32,000 bases of DNA from Candidatus Methanoperedens sp. (GTDB lineage Archaea; Halobacteriota; Methanosarcinia; Methanosarcinales; Methanoperedenaceae): positions 60,001 to 92,000 of the forward strand of contig JAPZAR010000030.1 in NCBI GenBank assembly GCA_027460535.1, written 5' to 3'. Below, one piece after another: positions 1 to 25,487 of the stretch. Numbering within the stretch: position 1 is the stretch's first letter; the number at the start of each line of letters is the position of its first letter. The translations under genes were made by a program, and so were the position numbers. Below the pieces are notes generated by a model. That model saw only the letters and a list, made by a program, of their open reading frames with translations. It was not told the DNA's origin and searched no databases.

Positions 1-1
1 G

Positions 2-3180: not shown

Positions 3181-3989
3181 ATGCCCAATAATCCTATGCT
3201 GTTAAATCCATGCTTCAGGCATCAGTCATATTATTCTATTTGTTATTATATGTCGGGAATTTAGACACGCCTCTCCTGATTGAGGTTCATTCATGATTTT
3301 TCCATTACCTACATAGTGTATGCCGGATAAGCAACTCTTTAAATTCCGTCTCTTAACCCACCACTCCCAATTCGTTGTGTATTTCCGCGGGAATATTTTC
3401 TTAGATAAATATCGTTTTCTCTCCATGGTGTTTTCCAGTTTACTCATCACGGCAAAATTAGTCATCAAGGACAAAAATCTATGAAACCCTCGTATTAATA
3501 AATCTTTTTCCGGTGGAAATCTATTCAGCTTGGTTATGAGAAAAGATTATCATGAATATTTTTTTTAGATAAAATATTATGGTATCACTTTTATTATTTT
3601 TATAATGTCTGACTAAGATATGCTGTATACTACCAATCAAATTAAAATCTCTACAGGAAACACTGGGGTATTACTACTGTAGTAGTACCTAAATAACACC
3701 CATCTATTTATCGATACTACTACACAAGTTAAATGGTAGGATAGATAGGAACTCGATAATCAAATGTTTGTACTCTGATAGACTGATGATTGGAAAGTGT
3801 CAGCAGGTTGGGGTGGAAATGGGCAGGTTTGGGAGTGGGGATATCATGATCAAAAGAGTTCATCTGCCGCATTATGCAGTATCTCAACTACATTAAATAT
3901 TTTCCAAGGAATATATCCCCATTACTTCATCCTTCCAATCAGGGAGCTTTTGATCAAATGGTTTTACCTATCATCTGCAAGGTTCGCAT

Positions 3990-5213
3990 TTACCATATTT
4001 TCCTGAAATAATAATACATCACTCCTGCTGCACAGGCAATGAGCCCTATTATCCAGGCATCCCTTGCAAGGAAAAATAAAAGCATCACGCTGGTTATCAA
4101 TCCAAGTATCGGTATGATACGAGGATATACAGGTTTTTTTAATCTAAGCGCTGAGATGTTGGCAATAGCATAATACAAAAGTGAGGCGAAATTGGATATC
4201 GCGGCTGCCCGCATCAGATCAGTGAATGCCGCAAAGATCGTCATTATCAGGCCGAAAACCAGAATGGCGTTGGAAGGCATCGCATTCCTTGGATTTAGCT
4301 TTGCAAACAGAGCAGGAAAATCCTTATTCCTTGCCATAGCAAAGGAAATGCGGGATAATCCAAGAAGCGTGGTGAGAAGGACGCTCAGGGTAGCAACGAG
4401 CGCGCCCATGGAAATAAGGAAAGCCGCGTTCTTGCTTTCAGACATTGCGGCATCGGCAAGTGGAGAACCGGTGGATGCGAGTTCCCGGTATCCTACAAGA
4501 CCCACAGCGACGAAACTCACAAGCACATAGATCAGGGTGGATATTCCAAGGGCAAGTATTATAGCAAGCGGAATATTTTTTCTGGGGTTTTTCACTTCCT
4601 CTCCGATGATGGTGATCCTCGCAAACCCGGAATAGGCAAAAAATATTATCGCAGCGCCCTGCATTACCCCGCTTTCTCCATTGGGCATGAAAGGTGAAAA
4701 ATTTCCAGACTTCATGGCACCTATGCCAATAACCACAAAAAAGGCCAGGATCAGGAGTTTAATCACCACCAATATGTCATTTACAAGCCCGGATTCCTTT
4801 GTTCCAAGATAATTGATCAGGGTAATAACAAGGCAGGCACCAGCAGCCATCATATTCACAGGAAGAGGGATGAATATCGCAAGATAGCTTGCAAAACCCA
4901 GGCTTACCACGGCGCCCACAACGATATTGGCGAGAAGCCAGAGCCACCCCGAAATAAAACCGGCAAAAGGTGAGATGAGTTCATGGGCGAACTCATAAAC
5001 TCCCCCCTCTTTCGGGATGAAGGCAGCCAGTTCTGCAAAACTCAGGGCCGTGAAAGCGGAAATAATAGCACCGATAAGCAAGGATATGATGAGCGCGGGA
5101 CCGGCGAGACCCGCAGCTATACCTGTCACAACAAAAATGCCGGCACCTATTATGGCCCCTATTCCGATAGCCATCGCATCGAATAGGCCAAGCGTTTTTT
5201 TCAATTCCGTCAA
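3990..5213 (-). CDS. APC-superfamily amino acid/polyamine permease
   Basis: 407-aa polytopic membrane ORF. The N-terminus LKKTLGLFDAMAIGIGAIIGAGIFVVTG and FAELAAFIPKEGGVYEF are typical of the APC family signature region. Confidence 0.9.
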   Translation of the reverse strand: MTELKKTLGLFDAMAIGIGAIIGAGIFVVTGIAAGLAGPALIISLLIGAIISAFTALSFAELAAFIPKEGGVYEFAHELISPFAGFISGWLWLLANIVVGAVVSLGFASYLAIFIPLPVNMMAAGACLVITLINYLGTKESGLVNDILVVIKLLILAFFVVIGIGAMKSGNFSPFMPNGESGVMQGAAIIFFAYSGFARITIIGEEVKNPRKNIPLAIILALGISTLIYVLVSFVAVGLVGYRELASTGSPLADAAMSESKNAAFLISMGALVATLSVLLTTLLGLSRISFAMARNKDFPALFAKLNPRNAMPSNAILVFGLIMTIFAAFTDLMRAAAISNFASLLYYAIANISALRLKKPVYPRIIPILGLITSVMLLFFLARDAWIIGLIACAAGVMYYYFRKIW

Positions 5214-5302
5214 TATTTATCCCCCCAGCTTTCAATTGATCGTTCAATGAATATTAGGATTTTCCATTAATATATGTATCTGGAGATGCATTAAGGATTC
5301 AA

Positions 5303-6043
5303 ATGTCTCAGGATAACTCCCGGATCGAACATTATTGGGATCTTATTCAATTCGGCCTGGTACGTATTCTCATCGCCATGGGAATTGGCTTTATCATTGC
5401 TGCGTTGTTAAATCCCGAGGGCACCAGCCGACTGATCGGGACAATTTTGTACAATCCTAATGCTCTATCCGATGAATTCAAACTTGATGAGACCTGGATA
5501 CTGTTGGGTTTAGGAACAGGGTTAGTTATATTTGGTATTTTATTGTACACTTTTATGTATCTGACAGAATATCGCTTCAAACTTTTTCTCCAAAAACTGA
5601 AAAGAAGCCAGGCCGTTTACCTGGAAAAAAAGGTGCACAGCCAGCTTCTTGAGCTCCAATTCCTCATTACACTTTCATTTTTGATAACATTTACAGCATC
5701 AAGAGCGCTCGTGGTATTTTCTGGCGAATCACAGCCCTCTCTTGAACTGTGGATAGGAAATTATCATATACACCATTTTTTCTTTGGTATTCTTACTTTA
5801 TCAATAAGTGGCTGGATAAGTCTAATAGGAAACAGGAGAAAATATAAAATGGCAGCAGCCATTCTTTATGGAGGCGGGTTGGGTCTGCTTATAGATGAGA
5901 TGGGTCTTTTGCTGACCTGGGGGAATTACTGGGCCAAACAATCATATGTCTTTGGCGTTATTGTGATAGTTATTTTCCTGAGCATTATTCTATATGAGTA
6001 TACAAGAGAGAGAAAGAGAGATTCAGACTGGACGATAAAATGA
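5303..6043 (+). CDS. Polytopic membrane protein, function unknown
   Basis: 246-aa ORF with at least 6 hydrophobic helices and conserved-looking NYHIHHFFFG and GLGLLIDEMG patches. Its stop overlaps the next start (ATGA at 6040). Confidence 0.6.
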   Translation: MSQDNSRIEHYWDLIQFGLVRILIAMGIGFIIAALLNPEGTSRLIGTILYNPNALSDEFKLDETWILLGLGTGLVIFGILLYTFMYLTEYRFKLFLQKLKRSQAVYLEKKVHSQLLELQFLITLSFLITFTASRALVVFSGESQPSLELWIGNYHIHHFFFGILTLSISGWISLIGNRRKYKMAAAILYGGGLGLLIDEMGLLLTWGNYWAKQSYVFGVIVIVIFLSIILYEYTRERKRDSDWTIK

Positions 6044-6549
6044 CCAGCAAAATAAATATTGAGAGACGCGGTATTTTGATATCTGCTATCGTATTAGTAA
6101 TTTCAGTTCTTTTACTGGTCGATAGATTGCTGGCGACAGGTCCCGTGCAGCTTATTATAGAAAATGGCAAGGCTGTCCCGGTAGAGGGAGTCTCATATTT
6201 TTCATTAAATGATGTGTTGTTTTTCATCATAACAGCATGGCTTGGCGGCATGTCTTTCCTTTACATTGTTCTGCTCTCAAAAGAAACGCCCGCAATACAA
6301 GAAGATATCAAAGCAACCCAGGAAAATAAAAACACATCGCTATTAGCAGCCAATCTGCTTGAAGGGGATGAGAAGATATTATTCAAAGAAATTCTGGATA
6401 ACGACGGGATATTGCAAAGAGATCTTATTCTAAAGACTGGTTTTTCTGAGCCGAAAGTGAGCAGGCTTCTTGACAGGATTGAGAGAAGAGGATTAGTAAT
6501 ACGCCGAAGGGATGGGATGGGGAACAGGATTTTGCTAAAAAAGGAATAA
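6040..6549 (+). CDS. Membrane-anchored winged-helix transcriptional regulator (COG2512-like)
   Basis: Two N-terminal TM helices are followed by a MarR-like wHTH (ILFKEILDNDGILQRDLILKTGFSEPKVSRLLDRIERRGLVIRRRDG). It is translationally coupled to the upstream gene. Confidence 0.7.
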   Translation: MTSKINIERRGILISAIVLVISVLLLVDRLLATGPVQLIIENGKAVPVEGVSYFSLNDVLFFIITAWLGGMSFLYIVLLSKETPAIQEDIKATQENKNTSLLAANLLEGDEKILFKEILDNDGILQRDLILKTGFSEPKVSRLLDRIERRGLVIRRRDGMGNRILLKKE

Positions 6550-6989
6550 TTCAGCTGATTTCAATTTTTTGAGGTTGATGCATTCCTGCAATTCCGGCAT
6601 TTTCGCAATTTGCTAATTCAGGTGAATTAGATAATGATGGGATTCATCAATTTCTCTTCCAATTCAATTTTTTTCATACGGGACTATAAAAAGCTGGATT
6701 GAGGGATAGCATGATAGGATGGTGGTGGTGGGGGTAGGAAAAAGAGGTGGTCATGCCATCGTTCCTCCCGGCTTTCGCTTTTCAAGATCTTTTTACTGTC
6801 GTCCTGGATTATAAAGGATGTAATCCATCCTCAAAAAATGAGAACAGCACATTTCTGAAAATTATACAGCAGCCAAAATTCTTTGAATCAATAAGAAATT
6901 GGCAAGTATTTGTGAATCCAACCAAAGAATCGTCAAGAATAGGATGGAAAGAGTCCACGTGCATGGAAGAGCTTAGCCTTCATCAGATG

Positions 6990-7187
6990 TCATCTCCGAA
7001 CCACTACTACGCGTGCCTGATATCCGAGACGCGATAAAAAGTACTCGTAATCTTCCCATGTCATTCCTAATGCTTTTACATCTGCCAGGCCAAGCCTGCT
7101 GACAACCTCGCGAAGGGCATTAAAATCATTGCTTTCGAAATCCGCTTCCATCATCATATTTTCTGACCATTCCACAAGCTCTGGCAA
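6990..7187 (-). CDS. Small acidic hypothetical protein, possibly a frameshifted longer gene
   Basis: 65-aa ORF from a TTG start. The same frame stays open upstream to 7247, and an ATG at 7249-7251 is out of frame by one base across a 5-nt homopolymer (see findings). Confidence 0.3.
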   Translation of the reverse strand: MPELVEWSENMMMEADFESNDFNALREVVSRLGLADVKALGMTWEDYEYFLSRLGYQARVVVVRR

Positions 7188-7305
7188 TGTGATGCGGTGA
7201 TGCAGGTAATCAGCTATTTTCAGGGCTACATCTGTAGGGGTGATTTTTCATAGCTTTTCCTTTATTACTTTTTTATGCCCCTTATCATCGGGATATTCAA
7301 GAGAA

Positions 7306-7638
7306 TCACTCTTCTTTCAAGATCGCCATGGTTTTCTCTTTGAGATCAGGAAGCTCGTTCACTATCACAGCCCAAACAACATCTACATCAATTCCAAAAT
7401 AATTATGGACCAATATATTCCTCATTCCAATGATCTTAGACCATGGGATATCAGGATATTTGTCTCTGAAATTATCAGGAAGAGCACGCGCCGCTTCCCC
7501 AATTATCTGAAGGTGATGAACAATCCACGTTTGAATCAGTTCATCGTGCTCAAAAGCATCGCGTCCACGATTTGCGTACTTTTCAATTCGCTCAATGGCT
7601 TCCAGAATATCCAGTAGCCTTTCACGCACCTCTCTCAT
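7306..7638 (-). CDS. hepT: HepT (DUF86/HEPN) toxin of a type VII toxin-antitoxin pair
   Basis: 110 aa. The Rx4HxY HEPN motif is present as [13 protein letters not shown]. It overlaps the upstream nucleotidyltransferase gene by 4 nt. Confidence 0.9.
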
Positions 7639-7934
7639 AGAGGTTTAGCCTCTTTAAGTACTCGCTCACGAATACGTGGTCGTAATCCCCTTTCAGTCAC
7701 CACATCAACTTTACAGGCAAGTAAATCCTGAAGATCCATCAACAACCCACCGAGATCAAACAGGCTGCGTCCGGGCTCAAGGTCAACCAAAAGATCAATA
7801 TCGCTATCCTGCAAAGCTTCGCCGCGCGCGGCAGAGCCAAAAAGTCGGACATTCCGGGCGCCGTATTTTGCAGCAATGCGAAGGATTTCATTGCGCCTGA
7901 CTTTTAATAACTCTGCAATGTTCATCTTCTTCAT
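7635..7934 (-). CDS. mntA: MntA-type minimal nucleotidyltransferase antitoxin
   Basis: The GSx(n)DxD motif is present as [20 protein letters not shown] place the start at the ATG giving [10 protein letters not shown], because the track ORF start (7988) is upstream of the first Met of the conserved domain. Confidence 0.88.
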
Positions 7935-8049
7935 TTTATATATGTATGTGCACATCAAATAAGAATTTTGCTGAGCCCTATATTCCATCCACTCCAGATC
8001 AAACAGTTACAGGAAAAAACAATGTGCAGCGTTTCTGTTGTCCGAATTG

Positions 8050-8212
8050 TTGATAAAAACCCTTGGTTGGCGCTGTCCTCCGCCGCGTTCGCCATCCGAA
8101 AGCAGCGCCGCGTATCCATCCGTCGGGGGCACCGGGGAACAGAATAACCTCTGGCAGCGCGGAATCAAGAATTCGTACCACAATCGTTATCCGATGCTAT
8201 CTTCGCAACTCA
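8050..8212 (+). repeat. Intergenic repeat element copy R1 (5'-truncated or diverged)
   Basis: Contains the conserved core ggcgctgtcctccgccgcgttcgccatccgaaagcagcgccgcgtatcc (8069-8117) and the downstream ggaacagaataacc / caagaattcgtacc block, both shared with R2. Confidence 0.8.
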
Positions 8213-8223
8213 GATAATTCAAT

Positions 8224-8613
8224 TTACCATTTTTCATATTTCAAGTCCTCAATTTCACCAAAATGACCATCACGAGTAACAAGTATAAGATCATTTTGCA
8301 TGGCAACGGCAGCTATCCAAATATCATTTTCAGGAATTGGTTTTCCTTTATCTATAAGTTTATTTTTCACCATTCCATACTGATATGCAGTATTCTTGTC
8401 ACATGTAAGAATGGTAATACTATCCGCAAAATCTGATATTCGCTTTAAATTGGTCTTAGAATGTTTCGACTTGAAAGCACCAAAAAATAACTCTCCAAGA
8501 ACAATGCTGGAAATAAATACTTCATCTGCTTTTAAAAGATGTTCTTTTATTGATGTTTCTCCACTGAAAATGGCAATTACAATATTTGTATCAAGAATAA
8601 ATCTACCACTCAT
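8224..8613 (-). CDS. vapC: PIN-domain ribonuclease toxin (VapC-like)
   Basis: MSGRFILDTNIVIA at the N-terminus (first acidic PIN residue), then NDIWIAAVA and ILVTRDGHF. The ATG at 8611-8613 overlaps the antitoxin stop. Confidence 0.85.
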   Translation of the reverse strand: MSGRFILDTNIVIAIFSGETSIKEHLLKADEVFISSIVLGELFFGAFKSKHSKTNLKRISDFADSITILTCDKNTAYQYGMVKNKLIDKGKPIPENDIWIAAVAMQNDLILVTRDGHFGEIEDLKYEKW

Positions 8614-8830
8614 TAATATCAACTTTTTCGCACCCTTTTTCGATTGCCTGGGTCATATCATTGACATCATCAGCATTTAATATACCTGCAAAACGAAGGA
8701 GTTTCTTGCCCGAAACACCTTTTTGCGGGGATGGAGCTGCTGCTTCGGCCAGATCAAGAATTTTTATTTGTATCTCGGTGGGTAAGCGATCAAGTCGTTT
8801 TATTATTTCTCGCCTTTTAAGTTTGGTCAT
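8603..8830 (-). CDS. VapB-type antitoxin (small, precedes and overlaps the PIN gene)
   Basis: About 75 aa from the ATG giving MTKLKRREII. The call rests on position and overlap with the PIN gene. The C-terminal ...AIEKGCEKVDINEW resembles antitoxins paired with PIN toxins. Confidence 0.6.
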   Translation of the reverse strand: MTKLKRREIIKRLDRLPTEIQIKILDLAEAAAPSPQKGVSGKKLLRFAGILNADDVNDMTQAIEKGCEKVDINEW

Positions 8831-8921
8831 AATGAGATAAATCACCAATGTATAAATTTACTTATTGCATTTTTTGAATATAGCCCTTTCTTAAGAAGAA
8901 AATTAAAAGAGTATTACCTAA

Positions 8922-9192
8922 TCTCTCGCGCCGACATGACCCTATACAACCTCAAGCGCATCGTGTAAACTGTATTTTATAGAACACTGAAAATAAAAAC
9001 CGCGGATGAACGCAGATGAACGCAGATTGGCTGCATGGTATCCTCCAGCTGGCGCTGTCCTCCGCCGCGTTCGCCATCCGAAAGTAGCGCCTCATATCCG
9101 CCGGGAGGAGGCAGGGGGAACAGAATAACCTCCGGCAGAGGACTATCAAGAATCCGTACCGCAAGCTATTCTCCGATGCGACATTTGCACCC
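8922..9192 (+). repeat. Intergenic repeat element copy R2
   Basis: Has the 5' block cgcgccgacatgaccctatacaacctcaagcgcatcgtg, the decamer tandem cgcggatgaa/cgcagatgaa/cgcagattgg, the core at 9051-9099, and a 3' block shared with R1. Confidence 0.85.
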
Positions 9193-9288
9193 ATAAAACC
9201 AGTAAATATGTACGGGATAACAGGATGAACTGGATTTATCATGTGCTCATCAATAAAGTTATTACCCATAAGTGGGATATATGGGATT

Positions 9289-9552
9289 ATGCCTATGACA
9301 AAGATGGATGAAAGAGGTAGGGTTCTACTTCCAAAAGAGATCAGAGAAGAAATGAATCTCAAACCCAGTGAAGAATTGCTTATAATAAATGCAGGGAAAG
9401 AAATGATCTTGCTTAAGAAGGTGAATGTCAAACAAATGCTGGGAGATATCATTGATAGAGTAAAGGGACTCGATCTTGAAAAACTCGAACGACAAATAGA
9501 AGATGAAGGAAATAAGATTACGAAGAAAAAGTATCCGAAGGTTTTTAGTTGA
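9289..9552 (+). CDS. AbrB/SpoVT-fold antitoxin
   Basis: MPMTKMDERGRVLLPKEIREEMNLKPSEELLI is a typical SpoVT/AbrB swapped-hairpin N-terminus. The start is ambiguous between 9289, 9295 and 9304. The track start at 9241 falls inside repeat-flanking sequence. Confidence 0.75.
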   Translation: MPMTKMDERGRVLLPKEIREEMNLKPSEELLIINAGKEMILLKKVNVKQMLGDIIDRVKGLDLEKLERQIEDEGNKITKKKYPKVFS

Positions 9553-9940
9553 TACTAATCTTTTCATATCAGCAATAAAAAAGTGGGCAAAGAGTACTGA
9601 TTTGCTCCTTTATTTGCTCACGAGCACTGAAATAGAATTGATCGTAAACGAGGTTTTAATCGGAGAATACCGCAAGTTCACGCTCAAACTTGGAGCGCCG
9701 GAATTCTTAGAACTGGTATCCAGTGTTGTTGTGGTATTAAATCCGTCAGAAGAATATGTAAAAGACTGTAAACAATACTTTCCTGAAAATAAAATGGCTG
9801 ATGTTGTTCATGCAGCTACATGTCTCCAATATGATGCAGTCTTAATCAGCAATGATAAGCATTTTGATAAGATAAAAAACATGAAACTAATTGAAGTCTG
9901 GAAAATTAATGAAGCGATAGAAGAATTTAACATATTATGA
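9503..9940 (+). CDS. PIN-domain toxin partnered with the AbrB-like antitoxin
   Basis: FLVDTNLFISA, DVVHAATCL and AVLISNDKHF are PIN acidic-residue contexts. It overlaps the antitoxin gene by 50 nt. Confidence 0.8.
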   Translation: MKEIRLRRKSIRRFLVDTNLFISAIKKWAKSTDLLLYLLTSTEIELIVNEVLIGEYRKFTLKLGAPEFLELVSSVVVVLNPSEEYVKDCKQYFPENKMADVVHAATCLQYDAVLISNDKHFDKIKNMKLIEVWKINEAIEEFNIL

Positions 9941-9943
9941 TGT

Positions 9944-10290
9944 TATAATTATAAAATCACGCGCGCCGACATGACCCCATGCAACCTCAAGCGCATCGTG
10001 AAAACCAGATTTTTTATGAGCGCTAAAGATAAAAACCACAGAGCGCACAGAGGACACAGAGAAAAACAAATATCTTGAAAATGCCTCCGGGCGGCGCTAG
10101 TCTCCGCAGCGGTCAGATCGCCATCCGAAAGCAGCGCCGCATATCCGTTGGGGGGCACCTGAGATCAGAATAACCTATGACAGCGCTGTATCGCGAATTC
10201 TTACCGCAAAGAACGCAAAGGGCGCAAAGATTTTGCTGCTACGCTTTGCGTTCTTGGCGCACTTTGCGGTGATTTATGTTTAGCAGTTCA
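9944..10290 (+). repeat. Intergenic repeat element copy R3 (longest; carries an extra hairpin module)
   Basis: Starts with tataaaat (9950-9957) followed by cgcgccgacatgaccccatgcaacctcaagcgcatcgtg. It then has the 9-mer tandem cacagagcg/cacagagga/cacagagaa and the core at 10093-10146. A 26-bp imperfect hairpin at 10204-10269 is built from cgcaaag 9-mers. Confidence 0.85.
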
Positions 10291-10304
10291 GTTTTATCAT
10301 AAAT

Positions 10305-10567
10305 TATGACATTCTAACTATAAAATCCCGCGCGCCGACCTGACCCTATGCAACCTCAAGCGCATCGTGAAAACCAGATTTTTGAAGAGCACTGAAAATA
10401 AAAACCGCAGATGAACGCCGATGAACGCAGATTGGCTGCCTGGAAAAACCCCTCCGTCCGGCGCTATCCTCCTCCACATTCCTCTCGCCATCCGAAAGCA
10501 GCACCGCATATCCGTCTGGAGGGAGCAGGGGACAGAATAACCAGCGGCACAGGACTACCAAGATATT
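10305..10567 (+). repeat. Intergenic repeat element copy R4
   Basis: acattctaactataaaat (10309-10326) is followed by cgcgccgacctgaccctatgcaacctcaagcgcatcgtg, the decamer tandem cgcagatgaa/cgccgatgaa/cgcagattgg, the core at 10460-10513, and ggacagaataacc. Confidence 0.85.
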
Positions 10568-10770
10568 TATTACATTCTAACTATAAAATTCTGCGCGCAA
10601 ACGTCCCCCAAGCAACCATCGACGCATCGTGCAAACCGGATTTTCAATCTTCACGATGAATAAAATCCACAGATTGTGCAGATTCGCGCAGATTGGCTGC
10701 ATGGAATCCCCGGCCGGCGCTGTCCTCCGCCGCGTTCATCTCGCCATCCGAAAGCAGCGCCGTATATCAT
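10568..10770 (+). repeat. Intergenic repeat element copy R5 (3'-truncated at the end of the giant gene)
   Basis: acattctaactataaaat (10572-10589) lies 263 nt after the same string in R4. The core is at 10716-10768. Homology to the other copies stops about 22 nt before the stop codon (10791-10793) of the giant ORF. Confidence 0.8.
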
Positions 10771-10790
10771 TCAACCTTTCACCTTTATAC

Positions 10791-13700
10791 CTAAATTACC
10801 AAGAACGATTGGAGTTCAAAGTGATGCCTGGGTTCACTTGGAACGGGCCTTTTCAAATTAAACAGTGCAACGAGACCATTAGCCTTTGCATCCGTGCCAC
10901 CGCCGCTTCTCCAAGGAATAGTTACATCCATAGCATTTCCAGAACAATGATTGCTAACACCAGGATAAGTGTTTGGGGCCCTGTGAGAATCACCTATTTT
11001 ATATCCTTCTGCAGCCTCGTTACCTTTTGCAGCCTCGTTACCTACATATTTGCTTATTGCATTCTGTCTGATTAAGACATACTGATCAATAAGGTCAAAA
11101 ATCTTCCATTCGGGTTTATACCATAAGTTGCCGTCCTCATCTACTGGGTGCGCTCTCAGGTTTTCTATCGGCACTCGATTATTCAAAATGGACCATGCGG
11201 TACTCCACAGATGGGCTTTTTTAGGCGAGCGTACTCCTTCGCCAAACTTAATATTACCGGAAACAAGGTGATTTATAAGCAAATAATCAGAAAGTGATTT
11301 CACATGATTATACAGAGTTGGGCTCAGTTGAACACCATCCAGTTCAAAAAAGAACTCTGGGTCGTATACAATTCGATAGGGGGTCAGGTGTGTTGAACTC
11401 CTCGCCATATATTTATCAAATATATCCATCATAGGCGAAATTAATATTACATCACTTAGAGAAATTTGCCCGCTTGGATCAATTTTATCTGCAGGGGCAG
11501 CATTTGCATAAAGGTATTCATGTAATGAAACTGGATCGAAAATATCGCCTTTATAGGAATCCATTGATATGAAACGCCCAATAGCCTGATTGTAATACCT
11601 TGCTCTAAGATAATAGAACCCTACATTGTGATCATATTGTTCTCCATTATAAAGATAGTTGTTGGCTGTGGAGCCAAATTGTTGTAACAAAAGTCCAAAA
11701 GCGTCATACATATAACTATCTGTTATTGTTCCATTGGAATCCGCTAGCTTTCTTGCGGACATATGGCCATCGTATAGATAATAAGATATTGAACCACTTC
11801 GATTCTGGCTGATGAGATCATCCCCATAAACATAGCTGACAATTGGCATATCTACTCCGTCAGTTTCGAGTAGTACCTGAGCATATGGCTGATTTCCATC
11901 CACCAGATATTTTGTAGTATCTGATCCATCAACTATCTTCTGGACTCGAATGTTATCTCCATTATAGGCATATTCCACAACAGAACTTCCTGAAACATCA
12001 GTTATATCTGCCTTGACTAATCTATTCTGGAAGTCGTATCTGTAGAGCACATTTTCTGTTGCATTGATTCTTTTCAGCGTGTTTCCGTTATTATCGTAAG
12101 TGAAACTGTTGTCCCACTCAGTCAGCAGCCTGTCATTGGCATCATAGGTATACGTTCTACTGGCGTCATCATCCATCTTTATCAAACGGTTCCCTACAGC
12201 ATCATAACTATAGTTGATCATCCGCAATCCCGATACCGGATCATTGATACTCTCATTCGTCAGCTTGTAAGTCTTATCGTAGCTGTAGTCCACCTTCCGT
12301 CCAGTATCTTCTACAACTCTGATCCTGTTTCCTGCAGGTGCGAGTGTGTAGGAATAGGATGAGATGACCCCGCCGACAGATTTACGGTTCAGCAGATTTG
12401 TCATGCGGTTCAGTGAATCATATGTATATTCCGCCACTGCGCCGTTCGGATATGTCACGCTGTCACGATTGCCCACGGCATCGTAGGTGTATGATGTTAC
12501 ACCACCATCAGGGTCGGTCACTGTCGATAGCCTGTTCAGAACATCGAAAGTATAGCTCGTAGTGCCTGAAGGAATGGTCAATAATACCCGATTCCCGGCT
12601 TCGTTATATGCATAAGAGAGGCTCCTGCCATCTGGATCGGTCTGTTTGACCAGCCTGTCACGGGCGTCATATTCATACGAAGTAACGCCTCTGCTATCGG
12701 TCACTGTCTTTCGCTGTCCGCTGGCAGTGTAGGTAAATATATCAGAACTGCCGTCGGGGAAGCTCTTTCTGGTGAGGCGACTGTTGGCATCGTAGGTGAA
12801 TGTCGTGGTATTCCCATTGAAATCGGTCTGCGATACCATATTCCCTGCCGCATCGTAGGCTGCGGTTTCAGACATCCCAAGCGGAAGCGTGCGCTTTGTG
12901 CGCCTGCCGAGCTTGTCATATTCAAATGAGGTGATGTGGTTGTTGGCATCTGTCTGGGAGACCATGTTCCCGGATTCGTCATAAGCATAGGCTGTTACCT
13001 GTCCAAGCGCATCAGTGACCTTCACCAATCTTTCCAGAGCATCATATTCAAACTGCATAGCATTTCCAGCCTGATCAGTTTCTGAGACCTTTATTCCCGA
13101 AGCATCGTATGCTATCGCAGTTGAAGTGCTGTCGGGATATATTGTCTTTATTTTTCTATTTCTGAAATCGTACTGGTACTGGAAAACACTGCCTCTGGCA
13201 TCGGTCATCTGGATTTGGTTGCCGTTATTATCGTATGCGTATGTGGTTGTATTACCCAACGCATCGATGACTGATATTTGTCTGCCTTCCGAATCGTATG
13301 TATAGCTCGTGGGATTGCCGCGCTCATTGATAACTCGCGTGATCCTGCCTGCTGCATCGTACTCAGTCTGCGTAATGTTTCCGTCTGGATAAATGGTTTT
13401 GATCATCCTGCCCAGCTTATCATAGGTGTACCTTGTCGTTCGCCCTGCACGGTCGATTGATGTGTTTTTCCTGCTCTCGACGTCATAGGTATAGCGCTCA
13501 TCTCTGCCATCCGGATATACCATTTTAACAAGGTTACCCTTTGCATCATATTCGCTCTGCAAGCGGTTGCCAAGTTTATCGATCGTGGCAACTTCTTTCC
13601 CATTAGCGTTATATTCTGTAGTGGTCAAATTGCCATAATGATCAATCGTCTGCACCAGCCGGTTTGCCTTATCGTACCCGTACTTCGTAATACTCCCTGA

Positions 13701-16700
13701 AGGCATTGTCTCGTTCAATTTGTTTCCGTTCTTATCATATGCGTATGTGGTTGTATCGCCCAGCGCATCGATGACCGATATCTGCCTGCCTGCTGCATCG
13801 TAAGTGTATCGCGTGGGATTGCTGCGCTCATTGATAACTTGCGTGACCCTGCCTGCTGCCTCATACTCGCTCTGCGTGAAGTTCCCGTCTGGATAGGTGG
13901 TTTTGGTCATCTTTCCCAGCTTATCATACGTGTAACTGGTCGTCCGCCCCGCACGGTCGGTTGATGTGATTTTCCTGTTCTCGACATCATAGGTGTAGCT
14001 CTCATCAGTACCGTCAGGATTCACCAGGCGCGCAAGATTGCCCCTCGCATCATATTCGCGCTCCATGCGGTTGCCCAGCTTGTCGATCGTGGCAGCTTCT
14101 TTTCCGATAGCATCATATTCGGTCGCGGTCGTGTTTCCGTACGGGTCGATGGTCTGCACCAGCCTGTTTGACTTATCATAATCGTACTGCGAAATACCAC
14201 CTGTTGGCGAAGTCTCGCTCAACCGGTTCCCGTTGGCATCATAAGTGTAGGCGAAAACATTCCCCAGCGTATCTGTCTGGCTTACCATATTGCCCGCGCC
14301 ATCGTAGGTGTAGGATGTCACACCGCCCAGCGGGTCAGTCATCCTGATGAGATTCCCTGCCGCATCATACAGGTTGGCGGTCACATATCCCAGCGGGTCG
14401 GTCGTGCTCAGCAGATTGCCGTTAGCGTCATAGGTATTCGTGGTGACATTACCCATGGCGTCAGTGGTAATCAGCATCTGTCCGCGGCTGTTGTAGGTGT
14501 ACGCGACAGTATTTCCCAGCGGGTCTTTCTGGCTCAAAAGATTGTCCTTGCTGTCATAGGTATAGTTTGTCGTATATCCCAGCGGATCGGTCTCTGAGAG
14601 CTTGTTGTCCCTGGCATCATACGTGTATTTTGTCACCCCGCCAAGCGGATCGGTCTTTTGCAACACGTTTCCTCTGTCATCATAGTCATAGGCTGTGATG
14701 CTTCCCAGGCGATCTTTCACGATCTCCTGCCGTGTGCCGATGTTGTGGGTGTATTCGATCCTGTTCCCGTCAGCATCCGTATGCGCGATTACCCTGCCAT
14801 CGTTATCGTATTCTGTCCGGGCGGGCTTGATTCCCCGCGGATCGACGATATCCACAAGACCGTGATCGGAATTGTAGGTGAACCTTGTGGTGCGTCCTTC
14901 CTGATCCGTGACGCTCACAAGATCGCCGTAGTAATCGTACTCGTACCGTATCGTGCTGCCCATCGGGTCAGTGATCTTTGTTATCCGTGCCAGTGCATCC
15001 CTTGTGAAGGTGACGCTCTTTCCTCCGGAGTGGATGATGCCCCCTGCGCCTATGGTTATGGTATTGCCGTTCGTGTCCCTGATACTCTCAAGTCCGGTCG
15101 GCTGGTTGGCGGTATAAACCGCGCCGTCCATCGTGGTGAGCTTGTAGCGGTTGGGATTGATCTCATTGAAATCTGCATCGTACAGTTTGTCGTCTTGAAG
15201 GTAATCGTATGTTACAGGATCAAGTGATTCAAGAGTAGAAAACGTTCCGGATTGAGCAGCAAATGTGAAATAGCCCTGAGCAATACCGGATTCATCTGCA
15301 TACGAAGTCACTGCCTGGACATCGAACTCCTGGTCGCGGGTTCCGGGAATACTCACAACTATGGTATGACTGCTGCTCGCGCTTACTCCCCATTCCAGGC
15401 ACGTACCAAATAATGATCTCTTACAATACAGCCCCCATCCTTCTCCTGGTACGCGATTCTCCTGAAGCTCTATCGACTCAAAGTCAAGAGTCCATCCGAT
15501 GCCGAAATCTCCCTTTGATTTGACCCTGCTGTCATATGTGCGGGTGACCGTGATGGGTATTCCTGCCATCGGGACGGTCAGGTCATTGAAGCTGATGGTG
15601 AAAGCACCGACTTTCATCTCGCCATCGATCTGGTATGTCTTTATGACATAAGCCGTATTCCCGCTTGCGTCCTCCGCAGTGAGTTTGATATCATAGAGAC
15701 CGTTCCTCATCGTTGTCGGGTCAAGCTTGCCCAGGACACCATTCGTTACCGATGAATTCCCGCCTGCGAAGGTGATGAATTCATTTTTATCTTTGGCCGA
15801 GTACTCAAGCCTGTAGCTGATAAGATTTGCATCACTGGCAGTGCCTGTGATATTTGTGGGAAAGGAGAACTTTGAATCATCAGCAGGGGAAGTGATCCCC
15901 ACCGTGGGCAGTATTATATCTCCAGGAGAGAGCACCCTGAATTCTGCTTTATCCAGTCCCTCATTTCCCGCAGCATCGAGTGCAGTGCCAACAGCGGTGA
16001 AGACACCCACAGCTGGAGAGCTATATGTTGCATTCCATGAAGCATCAAGCGCAACAGGTACGCCGTTCACGGTCAAAGATCGTGAGATCACACCTACATT
16101 ATCTGTGGCTTTAACGGTTATTGTGACGGGTTCACCAACATTTGCCTGCGGTATTACGATGACCTCAACTGCAGGTCGGATATAATCCGGGCCTGCCGGA
16201 GGCGCGACGGTCAATGTCTGAGCTGGACTTGAAATTCCGTCACTGGTTGCGTTTATCAGTGTAGTTCCCGGTGCCACAGATGCCGCCAGTCCAGAGGCAT
16301 TGATTGATGCTACACTGGTATTGCTTGATGACCAGACTGCAATTGATATGAGATTCTTTTTAGTGCCGTCTGAATACGTTCCATTGGCAATGAACTGCTG
16401 GGTCTGACCAATAGCTACGGTTGGATTTACTGGTGTAACTGTGATCGAGACAAGTTTTGCAGAGGTTACTGTCAGTGTCCTGGCCGGACTTATGATCCCG
16501 TCACTGGTTGCATTTATCTGGGTAGTTCCGGGTGCTACCGAAGTAGCCAATCCGGTGACATCGATCGTTGCTACACTGGTGTTGCTTGATGACCAGATTG
16601 CTGAAGAGGTGATGTTCTTACTGCTGCTATCTGTATAGGTTCCGTTGGCGGTGAATTGCTGGGTCTGACCCTGAGATATGGTTGGATTTAGAGGTGTTAC

Positions 16701-19700
16701 TGCGATTGAAACCAGTTTCGCAGGGGTTACGGTCAGGATCTCTGCCGGACTGGTTATTCCTTCGCTTGTTGCATTTATCAGGGTATTTCCCGGTGAAACA
16801 GATGTCGCCAATCCTGAGGCATCGATGGTCGCTACACTGGTATTGCTTGACGACCATGCTGCAATTGATGTGATATTCTTTTCAGTGCCATCTGTATAAG
16901 TTCCATTTGCTATGAACTGCCGGGTCTGACCCAGAGCTATGATCGGGTTCACGGGTGTTACTGCTATCGAAACCGGTTTTGCAGAAGTTACGGTCAGCGT
17001 CTGGGCAGGACTTGTTATTCCATCGCTGGTTGCATTTATCAGGGAAGTTCCGGGCGCTACCGAAGTAGCCAATCCGGCGGCATTGATCGTCGCCACGCTT
17101 GTATTGCTCGATGCCCATGTCGCAAATGATGTAATGTTCCTTATACTGCCATCTGAATAAGTTCCATTTGCGACAAACTGCTGAGTCTGACCCAGAGCTA
17201 TCGTGGGATTTAACGGAGTGATAGCGATAGACACTAATATTGCAGAGGTTACAATCAAGACCTGAGCCGGACTGGTTATCCCGGCGCTTGAAGCAGTGAT
17301 ACCGGTAGTTCCTGCTGCTTTTGATGTCGCAAATCCTGAAACATCAATAGCGGCTACACTGGTATTGCCTGATGACCAGGTTGCTGTGGAAGTAATGTTT
17401 TTTATACTCCCGTCTGAGTAGGTTCCATTTGCCATGAACTGTTTAGTCTGACCCAGGGATATTGTGGGATTCACAGGAGTAATTGCTATCGATACCAATT
17501 TTGCAGAAGTTACAGTCAAAGCTTGAGCCGGACTGGTTATCCCTTCGCTTGAAGCTGTAATGTTTATTGTTCCCGCTGATACCGATGTCGCTGTTCCTGA
17601 ATTATCTATAGTGACTACACTTGTATTGCTCGATGACCATGTTGCAATAGATGTGATATTCTTTGTACTGCCATCTGAATATGTTGCATTGGCCGTGAAA
17701 TGCTGTGTCTCACCCAGCGCTATGGCTGGATTTTTGGGTGTAACTTCTATCGATACCAATCTGGCAGATGTAACATTCAAAGTCCTTGCTGTTTCATTTA
17801 CCCATGTAGCGTTTATGTTTCCTGCTATATCGACTGTTCTCGTTCCTATCTCGTAAACTGTATCCGGAGCAAGACCTGTTGCATTGTAGTACGGATTGGA
17901 GATGTTATCTTTCCAGCTCCCGTTCAGGTATATCATCGTATGGTTGAAATCCGAATCCTGAGGATTCGACCATGTCCAGTTTATCCATGTCGTCCCGTTG
18001 ATGGATGCAAGATTTGTTATGCTTGCCGGCGGCGAATTATCCAGCAATGGCGCTGTTCTTGCGGTATGGTTGACCCATGTCTGGTTGATACTCCCGCAAG
18101 GTTGGGGTATATTTCGGAACGTACCAATAGCACTTAATATAGCATTTCGATTTCCATAAAACGTCGGTGGATATCTATCCCCTGTGAAGTACATCCTGTA
18201 CTGATCATCAGATATTCTAACAATTTCTCCCGGCGATACGATACTATAAGGGCCGCCTTCAAGCCCCTTATTATCTATGCGGATGCCGCATTCTTTACTC
18301 CATTTTAAACCGTCTGCTGATACAGCGGTCAAAAGGCGACTGTTCCATTGTGCATCCGCACCACTATAAGACAAGACAAATCTTCCATCTGAAAATTTAA
18401 TTATCCGAGGTGATGATACACCAAAACTATCATAGGTTCCACCAATGTTGATTCTTATTCCTTCTTCTTTTGTCCAGTTAAAGCCGTCAGTGGAAACAGC
18501 GCTAAGAATGCGGTAATTACCATATTGAGAATTCAAACCCTGATAGTACATTCTATAGGTCCCGTCTGATAACTCTACGATATTTGGACCCTCTGCTAAT
18601 ACAGTGTCATAAGTTCCACCATAGTCAATCCTTGTTCCTTGCTCTTTAGTCCAGTTTAAACCATCTGAAGATATCGCACTTAAAATTACCCCTCGTACCC
18701 ATCCTCCAAATGCGTATTCATGATCATAGTACATTCTGTAGGTTCCATCGGAAAGAACTAATACTTCCGGTTCATTTGCCCAACCTTCCTGACCTCCATA
18801 ACCCTCCCCAACTCGAATGCCACTTTCTTTTGTCCAATTCATAGCATCTGAAGAAATCGCACTTCGTATGTTCGTCGGATAAGTATAAGGGGGAACGGAT
18901 GAAGCATCTGAATGATACATCCTGTATTTTCCATCTGCCAATTTGACGATACTGGGATTACTTGCCCAGCCACCATCCAGCCTGATGCCACTTTCAACCG
19001 TCCAGTTCGAACACGGCTCGATACAATCGACAACATCACTTAATCTGGCGGATATGGTGTGTTCTGTATCCTGTGAAAAACCTGTTGCATTGTAGAATCG
19101 AACGCCTTTTGAAACATTGGTCTTGAATATGCCGTCGATGTATATCATTACCTTTGAGAAATCCGAATTTCCCGGTTCTGTCCATGTCCAGTTGATATAG
19201 GTCGGAGCATAGCTTTTGTTTGTCAGGTTGGTTATGCTCGGGCAGGATGTTGTGTCAGTTACAGGCGCCGTCCTTGCAGTGTGATTTACCCAGGTCTGAT
19301 TTATGTTGCCATAAATATCCACAGTCCTGGTCGCAATAATATGCTCTGTATCCGGAGCAAAACCAGTTGCATTAAAGAATTGCACTCCTCTGGCGATATT
19401 ATCTTTGAATACGCCATCTATCCAGACGCTTACACTGGCAAAGTCAGCATCCGCAGGATCAGTCCATGTCCAGTTGATATAGTTCCGGGCATAGCTTACG
19501 TTTGTCAGGTCAGTGATGCTGGCAGGTGGTGTTGAATCACATGATACTTTCTCAGCGCCCACGCCGACCAAGAGATCGGGGGAGGTGTATTTGCGGGCAT
19601 AAATATAATCCCAATCGGCATACGAGCCTGCAGTTGCCCAGACAGTAGAAGAAATAACCACTCTTTGGGTTGCCTCGACTGGTGTGGTTAATGTAGCTGA

Positions 19701-22700
19701 AAACACATCTAGATAATTTGTTCCGTCATAGCTATAACGTAACGCAATTTGTTGTCCGTTCCTTGTGACCTCATACCAGTAGGTGTGCCTGACCCAACCA
19801 TTATTGACTATATCATCAGGAGCAACCAGATTGTTCTTATTAACGAGGTTGGTATCATTATTTACAAGGTATACGGTTATATCGTTATAATTATACCACT
19901 GATCCGTACCGCGGTCGATCAAGAGGTAATCACTAATACCATTTCCTAAAGGAATTATCAGCTTTTGACTTTGTGCACCAGTTCCGGGATAGTTAAAATT
20001 ATACGTCACTTTTGTACGCAAGATCCAGTTATCCCCATCAAAAGGACGAACCAAACTCAGGCTCGGGCACCAGCCACCACTACATCCTTGTCCCGTCCAT
20101 CCTCCTCCATGAGATAGCGGGCCTTGAAGGATATACTTTAAGTATCCTGGGTTATCGGTTAGTGAATAACTACCTTGACCTGACAATACTTGCCAAGATG
20201 AATCCAGAATCGGACTCGAAAAATCATCAAAAAACTCAAAAGTCTTTGTTCCATCGCTCGCACTCGCCGCGCCCGGATTCCCGTAATACATCCGCATGCT
20301 GGTATCTCCGCTTGCGAGTATGCTCGAAACATTCACCCACACCAGCGCGCTCCTGTTCGCATAATCCCATGTCTCAAACCAGTAACTCAACTCGGCGCCG
20401 CCCGCATCCCTGAATCGCAGGTCTGCGCCGCTGGTCTGCGCGCTGGTGGGGAAGGCGCTTCCTGTGAGATTTACAAGCACCTGATAATCAGTCAGGGCGC
20501 TGCCGGGGTTATTGATCGTTATATCCCGGTAATACTGCCAGCCGTCCTGGGTGCACGATGTGATTTCAGGCGCCGTCTTTGTGGTGCGATTTACCCAGGT
20601 CTGATTTATGTTGCCATTCGTATCCACAGTTCTTGTCGCAATACTATGCTCTGTATCCGGGTCAAAACCAGTTGCATTAAAGAATTGCACGCCTCTGGCG
20701 ATATTATCCCTAAATACTCCATCTATCCAGACGCTCAAACTGGCAAAGTCAGTATCCGCAGGATCAGTCCATGTCCAGTTGATGTAAGTAGGGGCATAGC
20801 TTACGTTTGTCAGGTCAGTGATGCTTGCAGGCGGCGCTGCATCACAAAATCCTTTCTCCGCGCCCACGCTGATCGAAGGCTCAGGGGACGTGTATTTGCG
20901 GACCAAAACCCTGCCGGGATAATTTAATGTGGTGTAGCCGTAGTTGTTGTAGAGGTCTGAAACTTCATCTGCATTCAAAGCGCGGTTGTAGATGCGGACT
21001 TCGTCGATTGTGCCGTTGAAATAACTGTTAAGCACAGAGCCTATCGTTAATGGAACATCGCTTGCAGCTATGGTGCCGGATGCATTTGCGGTTGAAACAG
21101 GAATTCCATCAACGTAGAGCACCAGGTTTGTGCCGTTATAGGTGCCTGTTACGTGATGCCAGCCTTTTGTTTGGATCCTGTTGTCAAACACGGAGTATAT
21201 GCCTTTGTTTGTGTTGATGCGCATACCGAAGCCGAAGGGAGTGCTTCCGTAACTGTTCTGACCGAGGCCGTAGAGGAGGCTGTAAGATGCGTTGCTGCCG
21301 GTTGTGTCGTATCTGGTGACTTGACCATTATGCGGCGCGAAATAGACGTTTCTGCCGTCAAAAACCCCACCACCAAAGCCTCCATTTGAATTTGAATTCT
21401 GCACTCCTGTGTCGTAAAATGTCCAAGAGTTCGAGTCCATGAATGAATTTGTTGTGTCGTATTTCATTACCCGACCGTCATAGTAAGGAATGAAAAAGAC
21501 ATATTTGCCGTCAAAGACAGCACCATGGAAGCCTTTTTTACCATAATTTCGAATTCCTGTATCATAAAAGTTCCAGGAATTCGGGTCTGCGAACGAGCCC
21601 AATGTATCGTATCTCGTTACCCTATCAAGAACAATAGGTACAAAATAGACATATCTGCCATCAAAAACTGCTCCTGAGAAACCCATTGAATTTGAATTCT
21701 GAGCTTTCGTATCATAGAAGTTCCAGGAATTCGGGTCTGTGAACGAACCACCAGTGTCGTATCTTGTTACCTGTCCATGACCCGTACCCGGATCTCCGTA
21801 TGGTACGAAATAGATATATTTACCGTCAAAAACCGCACCATAGAAGCCTCTTGAATTTGGATTTTGAGCTCTTGTGTCATAGAAACTCCATGAGATTGAG
21901 TCTGTAAAAGAGCTTGTCGTGTCATATCTTGTTACTTGGCCACCCTTACCTGTATAGGAAGGTGCTGGCACGAAGTAAATATACCTACCATCAAATACTG
22001 CTCCAATAAAACCTATTGAATTTGAATTCTGAGCTGTCGTGTCATAGAAGTTCCAGGAATTCGGATCTGTGAAAGATCCGGCTGTGTCATATCTTGTAAC
22101 CTGCCCGTGATAGGTGTAGGTGTCCCAAACTTCTGGTACGAAATAAATATATCTGCCGTCAAAAACTGCACCATAGAAGCCTTTTGAATTAGGATTCTGC
22201 GCTGCTGTGTCATAGAAACTCCATGAAGCTGAGTCATTAAACGAACCATTTGTATCATATCTTGTAACCTGACCATGATAAACGCCGTTATTGTATGGTA
22301 CAAAATAGACGTATCTCCCGTCAAAGACTGCACCAATGAAGCCTTTTGATTTAGAATTTTGAATTGCTGTATCGTAGAAGCTCCATGAATTCGGGTCTGT
22401 AAAATTACCCGTTCCAGTTTTATCCACAATCGCGCGTATGTTTTCCAGAGACGCGCCTCTTGATGCGTTTACCCATGCTTCGATGCTAATTTCATTCTGA
22501 ATATTCAGACTTGTATCATTCCCAGCATTTGCATAATCTTTCAAGCCATCAAAACTCAGCGCTTTTCCGAACTTCCCGGTAAGCCACATCGGATCATTAA
22601 CTAAAGCCCCATTATTTCCTTTTCCAGAGGTATCATAAGCAGTCACACTCGAACCTTCATCAAAATGCCAGCTTCCCATCACTGGCTTAACATTGTCGAT

Positions 22701-25449: not shown

Positions 25450-25487
25450 ATTTGATCTATTCCAATTACCTTCTTCCACCAATATTA

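Follow-up and report, generated by a model that had tools for sequence, protein, structure and literature searches.

The closest described relatives of the locus treated here are WapA and other Sec-dependent Rhs toxins of Gram-positive bacteria, in which a YD/RHS shell with an N-terminal signal sequence ends in a DPxG core motif and is followed by an exchangeable tip of low G+C content. Classical Rhs polymorphic toxins with immunity cassettes have also been recorded in Methanosarcina acetivorans (Zhang et al., PMC3482391), so that an archaeal Rhs protein is not new in itself. Furthermore, secreted archaeal enzymes that hydrolyse peptidoglycan and kill bacteria have been described (Strock et al., 2025, PMC12352652). 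Here, an rhs gene is described that is located in a 32,000 nucleotide (nt) stretch of Candidatus Methanoperedens sp. (assembly GCA_027460535.1, contig JAPZAR010000030.1, forward-strand positions 60,001 to 92,000; this whole stretch is referred to as the window, and coordinates are given in its own numbering). What is distinctive in this gene is a tip that is probably directed at murein, the lack of an immunity gene and an array of non-coding repeats that follows the stop codon. The explanation favoured here, with a somewhat better than even chance of being correct, is that the locus encodes a wall peptidase which is delivered against bacteria by an Rhs shell and to which the archaeal producer needs no immunity, and that the ancestral non-coding array behind the gene delimits the exchangeable tip.

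The rhs gene and its C-terminal tip

The gene starts with GTG, 6 nt downstream of the ribosome-binding site GAGGTGA, and ends with the stop codon TAG at 10793–10791 (minus strand). The elements on which the following description relies are:

10791–24746, minus strand: rhs gene, stop codon included; an open reading frame (ORF) of 4651 amino acids (aa)
11469–11480, minus strand: DPSG of the Rhs core-end motif PADKIDPSGQ, identified in the translation and fitting PxxxxDPxG(L)
10794–11468, minus strand: C-terminal toxin domain (the tip) of ~225 aa, a putative divergent VanY-like zinc peptidase of LAS fold, as judged by profile, motifs and predicted fold
10947–10949, minus strand: His codon of the tip motif SNHCSGNAMD, the Asp codon of which lies at 10926–10928
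10821–10823, minus strand: His codon of the tip motif EPRHHFEL

The encoded protein contains ten Big_2 domains, two DUF2341 domains, Laminin_G_3, DUF6531 and 25 RHS-repeat stretches (PF05593, E 1.6e-155) in addition to beta-propeller-like repeats. It was found on at least two further assemblies, and a TEN_YD-shell annotation is on record for the identical protein. Its N-terminus, MKSSDLLSQILSIALITLILNSSILYVPVVSAAS, is hydrophobic and reads as a signal peptide. At the end of the core, a RARYYNQAIGRFISMD motif can be read from the translation upstream of DPSG, which, going by the behaviour of the family, is the expected self-cleavage boundary between shell and toxin tip. The last ~530 core residues (core end, window 10794–13049) are 57–61% identical to WapA-like, Sec-dependent Rhs proteins of Firmicutes (Acetivibrio saccincola, Herbivorax), which are annotated as WapA or polymorphic-toxin HINT proteins. 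As these are the best matches of the core, they suggest that the delivery shell was acquired across domains from Firmicutes. The G+C content drops from 0.47–0.54 in the core to 0.39 in the tip region, which is typical of exchanged Rhs tips.

Close homologues of the tip are rare, as only 10 were found among 5.8 billion proteins. A profile search recovered 239 representative clusters, in which the domain is nearly always situated at the extreme C-terminus of proteins of 200–2581 aa. Five residues (R94, H188, D195, E226 and H230) are invariant or near-invariant in tip alignments of 11, 83 and 107 sequences, and the family is characterized by the motifs GVRSP..AH, SNHxxGNAMD and E-x-W-H. The window tip contains the residues that LAS enzymes require, namely zinc ligands arranged as His-x6-Asp plus a distal His, a catalytic Glu in E-x-(W)-H and an Arg for the substrate carboxylate. 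A profile of the 11-sequence tip family found no match in the PDB; the profile of 83 relatives matched three structures of the D,D-carboxypeptidase VanY (5hnm, 6a6a and 5zhf) with E-values of 0.0025–0.005, and in this alignment the catalytic motifs of the tip line up with VanY PGTSEHQLGLAVD (of the SxHxxGxAxD type) and NEPWHY. Pfam VanY (PF02557) was detected in 4 of the 83 relatives, with a best E of 7e-5. Two AlphaFold2 models of the tip reached predicted local distance difference test (pLDDT) values of 72 (11 sequences) and 86.7 (83 sequences), and for both of them Foldseek ranked VanY and VanXYc best, with a probability of up to 0.99, followed lower down by LdcB, the endolysin LysECD7, ChiX and Hedgehog N-terminal domains, which all have the LAS fold.

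The domain architecture of the relatives is informative as well. Among the 83 sequences, fusions to the core domain of extracellular contractile injection systems (eCIS_core) of the Photorhabdus virulence cassette (PVC) type are the most frequent (25), followed by PG_binding_1 and SH3_3 (7 each) and single instances of LysM, OmpA and Pesticin-type lysozyme; RHS repeats were found in none of them. The placement in the VanY/VanXY/LdcB fold, the intact motifs and the peptidoglycan-binding domains of the relatives make murein a likely target and a naturally immune producer likely. With good probability, the tip represents a divergent member of the LAS-type zinc peptidases and would act on murein stem peptides. 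The family to which it belongs has no Pfam model and is uncharacterised.

Within the rhs gene, two regions of coding tandem repeats (16210–17782 and 23044–24086) consist of 261-nt Big_2 units in six and four copies, respectively, with 69–74% matches, and units of ~165 nt at 21493–22404 encode a repeated propeller-like module (FDGRYIYFVP...WSFYDT). Directly upstream of rhs and on the same strand lie genes for an HTH_20/ArsR-like regulator (25081–25482, 133 aa) and a DUF7521 protein (25488–25739, 83 aa), which may form a regulator pair for rhs. Both were also weighed as immunity candidates, and nothing supports such a role.

A repeat array in place of an immunity gene

The gap between rhs and the next gene comprises 850 nt and is bounded as follows (the modules of the repeats are described further below):

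10567–10772, plus strand: repeat R3, 3'-truncated, 18 nt from the rhs stop codon
10303–10563, plus strand: repeat R4, modules A to C
9934–10282, plus strand: repeat R5, modules A to D, with the CACAGAG variant of module B and a hairpin with 27-bp arms at 10203–10270
9241–9940, plus strand: cassette of a MazE/AbrB-type antitoxin and a PIN toxin, convergent with rhs; the PIN gene occupies 9503–9940 (PF01850, E 7e-10)

A sequence-only reading of the window had proposed that no immunity gene follows the Rhs toxin, that the 850 nt are made up of the repeats R5, R4 and R3, and that the next gene is a convergent PIN toxin. These proposals are borne out. The three copies are arranged head-to-tail in one orientation and cover ~96% of the gap, leaving ~40 nt outside copies, the PIN identity of the next gene is confirmed by its Pfam match, and the coordinates given in that reading are correct. 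In pairwise blastn within the window, R4 and R5 are 76.6% identical over 244 nt (E 4e-47), R4 and R3 76.2% over 210 nt (E 9e-37) and R5 and R3 69.3% over 212 nt (E 1e-23), a similarity far beyond chance. The metagenome gene calls of the public assembly, taken from the ENA contig ERZ27247940:k141_415263, which includes the window, contain no gene between rhs and the PIN gene.

The gap repeats are non-coding. The only candidates for translation, ORFs at 9949–10158, 10318–10509 and 10346–10561 (minus), sit inside the repeat copies (63–71 aa in R4 and R5); none of the three has a GGAGG-type ribosome-binding site, and none has a meaningful match in Pfam. For a comparison at the family level, 24 repeat copies were gathered from the window, a Methanoperedens metagenome-assembled genome (MAG) and metagenome contigs. 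Variation among these copies shows no three-base periodicity (column variability of the G+C-rich module 0.131/0.127/0.143), and their indels are mostly not multiples of three, with deletions of 1, 2 or 5 nt occurring 24 times and deletions of 3 nt twice. When compared with the orthologous array of another rhs locus, L067, each of the three ORFs splits into short, frame-switching matches. A coding repeat or a hidden small immunity protein was consequently rejected on the absence of a ribosome-binding site and of codon periodicity, on the frame-breaking indels and on the divergence of the frames from L067, in agreement with the earlier view of these ORFs as translated repeat DNA. Degenerate orphan modules of rhs were rejected as well, given that the repeats display neither a coding signal nor similarity to the rhs core. 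Orphan tip/immunity cassettes were likewise not found, as the region 7000–10790 contains no further RHS-like ORF, only toxin-antitoxin cassettes and repeats.

Two orthologous rhs loci, L067 (NCBI GCA_040961635.1) and L066 (ENA ERZ27254809), allow the region to be followed between alleles. Their rhs cores are 80–88% identical to that of the window at the nucleotide level (L067 88%) up to window ~11758/11610, beyond which the tips are unrelated; the three alleles thus carry three unrelated tips, and those of L067 and L066 gave no Pfam and no meaningful PDB match. In L067, 140 nt separate the rhs stop codon from a repeat array whose copies correspond one by one, and in the same order, to R3, R4 and R5, apart from a 75-nt internal deletion in copy 2. 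The point at which homology to the window restarts coincides exactly with the edge at which the first repeat is truncated, the junction being GAAT(T)GATATRCGGCGCTGC in both. Since the array is collinear at an orthologous rhs gene with an unrelated tip, it predates the divergence of the alleles, and the resumption of homology at the first repeat edge indicates that the exchangeable tip has its 3' boundary where the array begins. The search for a conserved small ORF 3' of orthologous toxins, which had been recommended as a check, thereby yielded the same array, frames that are not kept and no full-size immunity gene after rhs in L067, so that this locus is without such a gene whichever tip it carries. 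A 17-aa ORF at L067 5439–5492 (MNICRKMLTWIGFMCYKGA), with GGAGG 6 nt upstream of its ATG, runs into the first repeat and could be either what remains of a lost gene or a product of chance. The label "non-coding" is correct but understates the case, as the repeats form a conserved, positionally orthologous array and elsewhere alternate with toxin-antitoxin cassettes.

Relatives of the tip outside the window show the same habit. A same-strand gene immediately downstream is absent in five of six contexts (P0010, P0009, P0003, P0004 and P0107; the exception is P0005), which are mostly unclassified metagenome contigs and typically encode cargo of contractile injection systems. This matches the remark that many toxins delivered by PVC/eCIS lack adjacent immunity genes (Zhang et al., 2012, PMC3482391). 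Together with L067, these contexts make the absence a property of the locus and of the domain family and not only of the window allele.

Host and proposed mode of action

The host is a Methanoperedens-type archaeon, as seen from the IlvD protein of the window, which is 84–86% identical to proteins of Candidatus Methanoperedens sp. and M. nitratireducens, from neighbouring genes that carry archaeal DUF7xxx families and from the repeat family, which recurs in a Candidatus Methanoperedens MAG (L028). Neither murein nor pseudomurein is known from Methanoperedenaceae (Methanosarcinales), and pseudomurein is known only from Methanobacteriales and Methanopyrales. Methanoperedens lives in consortia. 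The ilvD neighbourhood of the window (1–6600) is not syntenic with the Methanoperedens genome L068 (GCA_023249105.1), where nothing resembling the rhs/toxin-antitoxin region and no orthologous rhs locus was found beside ilvD, and the block of permease, MarR, toxin-antitoxin and rhs genes therefore looks like a strain-specific island.

In the proposed mode of action, the Rhs/YD-shell protein would be exported via Sec and displayed on the cell surface with the tip encapsulated. The shell would then cleave itself at the DPSG boundary and carry the tip to neighbouring bacteria, where the peptidase would weaken the wall by cutting murein at its cross-links or at stem peptides that contain D-amino acids. 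A producer that has no murein, and that would export the toxin co-translationally inside the shell, would be intrinsically immune and under no selection to maintain an immunity gene. The same argument has been put forward for archaeal homologues of bacterial weapons that have lost their immunity genes (bioRxiv 10.64898/2026.07.27.741052). The 850 nt would accordingly represent not a degraded gene but an ancestral three-copy array of a lineage-specific, modular, non-coding repeat. As it is retained at an orthologous locus with a different tip, it marks the 3' edge of an exchangeable tip cassette. The most plausible role of the array would be to terminate or insulate the convergent rhs and PIN transcription units, and it may also be a substrate for recombination.

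The repeat family and its toxin-antitoxin neighbours

Copies of the repeat are assembled from four modules. Module A is A/T-rich, and in it a TATA-like CTATAAAAT precedes GCAACCTCAAGCGCATCGTG. Module B consists of oligo-T/oligo-A tracts on both strands together with short iterated motifs (window 9990–10060 and 10395–10450), which exist in two variants: two to three copies of GATGAACGC in R2, R3 and R4, and three copies of CACAGAG in R5 and in the repeats of loci L043, L060/1485 and L061/1229. Module C is G+C-rich and carries a near-invariant CGCCATCCGAAAGCAGCGCC, and module D, which includes the long hairpin in R5, is optional. Many copies are 5'-truncated or lack module B, and internal deletions and truncations are common. 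The iterated motifs of module B resemble iteron-type protein-binding sites.

Module C can form an interrupted hairpin of 19 bp, which is paired in 90% of alignment cells as compared to 41–53% when the partners are slid. Compensatory changes are few, so that the hairpin is supported by its conservation and could be either a palindrome at the DNA level or an RNA hairpin. RNAalifold, applied to both strands, detected little structure, as the consensus energies were weak (-9.0/-7.3 and -6.6 kcal/mol) and covariation was essentially absent. Compared with shuffled sequence, the folding of the repeat region is somewhat better (z -1.8 and -2.3). Rfam 15 gave no match at E ≤ 1 in 7000–12000 and none at the gathering score in the whole window.

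Comparison with known mobile or recombining repeats provided no assignment. Canonical attC sites were rejected, as zero RYYYAAC...GTTRRRY pairs occur on either strand of 8000–10800 (0.84 expected from shuffles) and the repeats measure 200–350 nt versus 57–141 nt for attC. [quoted passage not shown] A 20-mer scan of a genome collection yielded mostly chance single matches in bacteria of high G+C content, the only genuine match being to the Candidatus Methanoperedens MAG L028. Carriage by phages or viruses was rejected, since the one viral contig that shared a 20-mer displayed a similarity of only 40 nt and is explained by chance. So far, the family has been seen only in Methanoperedens-type sequences and appears to be specific to this group. 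As a working view, by analogy, it can be regarded as a mosaic spacer resembling bacterial interspersed mosaic elements (BIMEs), which would be prone to recombination and would provide bidirectional oligo-T terminators between convergent units.

The remaining repeats and cassettes of the window are:

8901–9212, plus strand: repeat R2, between the PIN/antitoxin and the MazE/PIN cassettes
8224–8830, minus strand: cassette of a PIN toxin and a putative antitoxin of 75 aa
8048–8208, plus strand: repeat R1, 3' half only (modules C and D), between the MNT/HepT and PIN cassettes and collinear with loci L051 and L046
7306–7988, minus strand: cassette of an MNT nucleotidyltransferase and HepT

At every repeat locus seen, repeats alternate with toxin-antitoxin cassettes, and all repeats of a locus share one orientation, with cassettes in either direction between them. 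The order of cassettes varies from locus to locus: HepT/MNT, PIN and MazE/PIN in the window, TumE/HTH and a RelE-like pair among eight repeat copies in 3.6 kb of L060, HepT/MNT in L051 and L046, HicBA in L064 and a RelE-like pair in L061. Alternation of co-oriented repeats with single cassettes is found in the window, L060, L051, L061 and L064. Between loci, cassettes are ~92% and the flanking repeats ~80% identical, and the homology of cassettes breaks 30–85 nt from the repeat ends at no fixed point. No integrase or recombinase family was matched among the ORFs scanned in the window.

Two further observations concern individual members of these loci. The MNT nucleotidyltransferase (7635–7988) gave a match to PDC-S09, a candidate defence family of PADLOC (E 2.4e-39). 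In L043 (219–4723), a solitary repeat (2642–2969) is flanked on both sides by a reverse-transcriptase/maturase ORF of the group II intron type on the strand opposite to the repeat, one of the two being frameshifted, and ~120 nt beyond this repeat are common to L060 (1038–1160).

Weighing of the explanations

The anatomy of the locus, the non-coding character of the gap, the orthology of the array, the affiliation of the host and the LAS-type motifs and fold of the tip are taken as shown; the enzymatic target, the delivery, the natural immunity and the role of the repeat are inferred. Several points weigh against a wall peptidase without need of immunity. The tip's own sequence has no significant match in Pfam or the PDB, and the Foldseek scores are modest (E ~3e-3, template modelling score 0.3–0.45), for which a large helical insertion in the tip offers a reason; the fold assignment thus rests on convergent weak signals and on the motifs. 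In addition, the Trp of the family motif ExWH is replaced in the window tip (EPRHHFEL), which could affect activity, and a Pfam scan of the 4651-aa protein detected no PG_binding, LysM or SH3 domain. No mechanism is known to us for the release of an archaeal Rhs protein onto the wall of a bacterium. The L067 allele also lacks an immunity gene, and the absence of murein is therefore not a sufficient explanation on its own unless the L067 tip is bacteria-specific, too. For the suggested role of the array as terminator or insulator, the weak RNA covariation is unfavourable. Accordingly, the earlier proposal that the immunity gene is missing because the producer lacks the peptidoglycan target stands in part: a murein peptidase is very probable and the host is, to our knowledge, without murein, but the gene is equally missing in L067 and in five of six contexts of tip relatives.

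A different history would be that an immunity gene was once present and was lost by replacement of the tip cassette or by expansion of or recombination between repeats, leaving a locus that is decaying, "disarmed" or protected in trans. The 17-aa ORF of L067, which has a GGAGG ribosome-binding site and continues into the first repeat as a gene stump left by truncation would, fits this history, as would a recombination breakpoint at the first base of the truncated repeat, where the homology between the window and L067 resumes, and the many deletions and truncations within the repeats. That stump could be due to chance, however, and in the window only 18 nt without any stump separate the stop codon from the repeat. 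The ORF of 4651 aa is intact, its catalytic residues are conserved, the protein recurs on at least two further assemblies, and tip relatives elsewhere also lack linked immunity genes, so that a loss of this kind appears unlikely. Judged to be just as unlikely is a peptidase that is no weapon at all and belongs to a surface protein for adhesion, remodelling or scavenging of bacterial walls, for example in mixed aggregates, for which immunity would be irrelevant. The many adhesin-type domains (Big_2, Laminin_G_3, DUF2341), the fact that the VanY and LdcB relatives are housekeeping carboxypeptidases and the consortial lifestyle of Methanoperedens are in line with this possibility, but the domain sits exactly at the exchangeable-toxin position of Rhs proteins, behind the DPxG boundary, 25 of the 83 tip relatives are cargo of the eCIS-core (PVC) type, and unrelated tips at orthologous loci are a hallmark of polymorphic toxins.

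The repeats themselves have been considered in two roles. That a small protein or RNA from within the copies acts as the immunity factor is highly improbable. R4 and R5 do contain ORFs of 63–71 aa, folding is better than in shuffled sequence and the interrupted 19-bp hairpin is kept in ~90% of cells; yet the ORFs have no ribosome-binding site, no codon periodicity and frames that are broken by indels and not conserved in the orthologous L067 array, and a secreted wall peptidase needs no RNA antidote. Moreover, the same repeats occur at toxin-antitoxin loci without rhs and beside an rhs gene with a different tip, which makes a function specific to a cognate toxin implausible. Alternatively, the repeats could be recombination sites of an integron-like array that shuffles toxin-antitoxin cassettes as well as the Rhs tip, with the missing immunity gene as a by-product of the boundary. 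Such arrays have precedents, as archaeal integrons and clusters of attC sites lacking integron-integrases (CALINs) rich in toxin-antitoxin cassettes are known (PMC9668308). The co-orientation of repeats that alternate with cassettes in either direction and in differing order, the higher conservation of cassettes (~92%) than of flanking repeats (~80%) and the coincidence of the 3' edge of the variable tip with a repeat edge are all compatible with it. Against it stand the lack of attC core-site pairs on either strand, the length of the repeats (200–350 nt versus 57–141 nt for attC), the lack of a matching recombinase family among the scanned window ORFs, cassette homology that breaks at no fixed distance (30–85 nt) from the repeat ends and the stable inheritance, without shuffling, of the three-copy array beside rhs, and it is accordingly rated as rather improbable. 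An equally low probability is given to the more speculative version in which the repeat is the recombination substrate of a new Methanoperedens cassette system, similar to an integron but without canonical attC sites, that would shuffle toxin-antitoxin cassettes and provide a 3' anchor for swaps of the Rhs tip, allowing re-arming without immunity genes.

If the explanation of an anti-bacterial wall peptidase is true, the locus would represent a testable case of contact warfare across domains, in which a methane-oxidising archaeon uses a bacterial-style Rhs shell, probably derived from Firmicutes, against a structure that it does not possess itself. The absence of the target from the producer would then explain why a near-obligatory immunity gene is missing, and a polymorphic toxin without immunity gene in a target-free host could be used as a screen for further cross-domain weapons. 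A separate, unexplained feature of Methanoperedens genome islands is the conserved array of repeats, together with the toxin-antitoxin cassettes that accompany it.

Comparison with known systems

Short, modular, non-coding repeats with an imperfect G+C-rich palindrome that are located at the 3' ends of genes or between convergent genes are known as BIMEs or repetitive extragenic palindromic (REP) sequences, enterobacterial repetitive intergenic consensus (ERIC) sequences and Vibrio cholerae repeats (VCRs)/attC sites, and VCRs are also interleaved with toxin-antitoxin cassettes. The repeats of the window resemble all of these in general layout; however, they share no sequence relationship, Rfam family or attC core sites with them and are longer (200–350 nt).

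With the WapA-type toxins, the Rhs protein has in common the YD/RHS shell, the DPxG core end, the exchangeable tip of low G+C content and the N-terminal signal sequence. It differs in that its host is an archaeon, in that the N-terminal two-thirds are formed by a very large array of Big_2, DUF2341, Laminin_G_3 and propeller units, and in that a repeat array takes the place of a cognate immunity gene or of orphan tip/immunity cassettes. A cell-wall peptidase as toxic module is shared with the Tae/Tse-Tai/Tsi effectors of type VI secretion systems (T6SS) and with Rhs-linked L,D-peptidase toxins (PMC3482391). Those peptidoglycan effectors have been described with linked immunity genes, whereas the window toxin has none, and a LAS/VanY-like toxin domain is absent from the list of that survey (PMC3482391). 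The cargo of eCIS/PVC (PF13699, eCIS_core) carries the same LAS-type C-terminal domain (35–53% identical), usually also without an adjacent immunity gene, but is delivered by a contractile injection system instead of an Rhs shell.

A functional parallel within archaea is provided by Woldo and Danwoldo of Halogranum salarium, where a murein-free archaeon likewise possesses a secreted murein-cleaving enzyme whose anti-bacterial use is inferred (PMC12352652). These are small, free, modular enzymes that combine M23 with PG_binding_1, in contrast to the encapsulated tip of a 4651-aa Rhs protein without a wall-binding domain. As the survey of Strock et al. required one or more cell-wall-binding domains in addition to a catalytic domain in the same protein, it would miss the window protein, and neither Rhs nor immunity is mentioned in its main text. 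The present locus would thus extend the archaeal peptidoglycan hydrolases to a further delivery mode and to an enzyme family of ~239 clusters, without Pfam model, that is undetectable by the published criteria.

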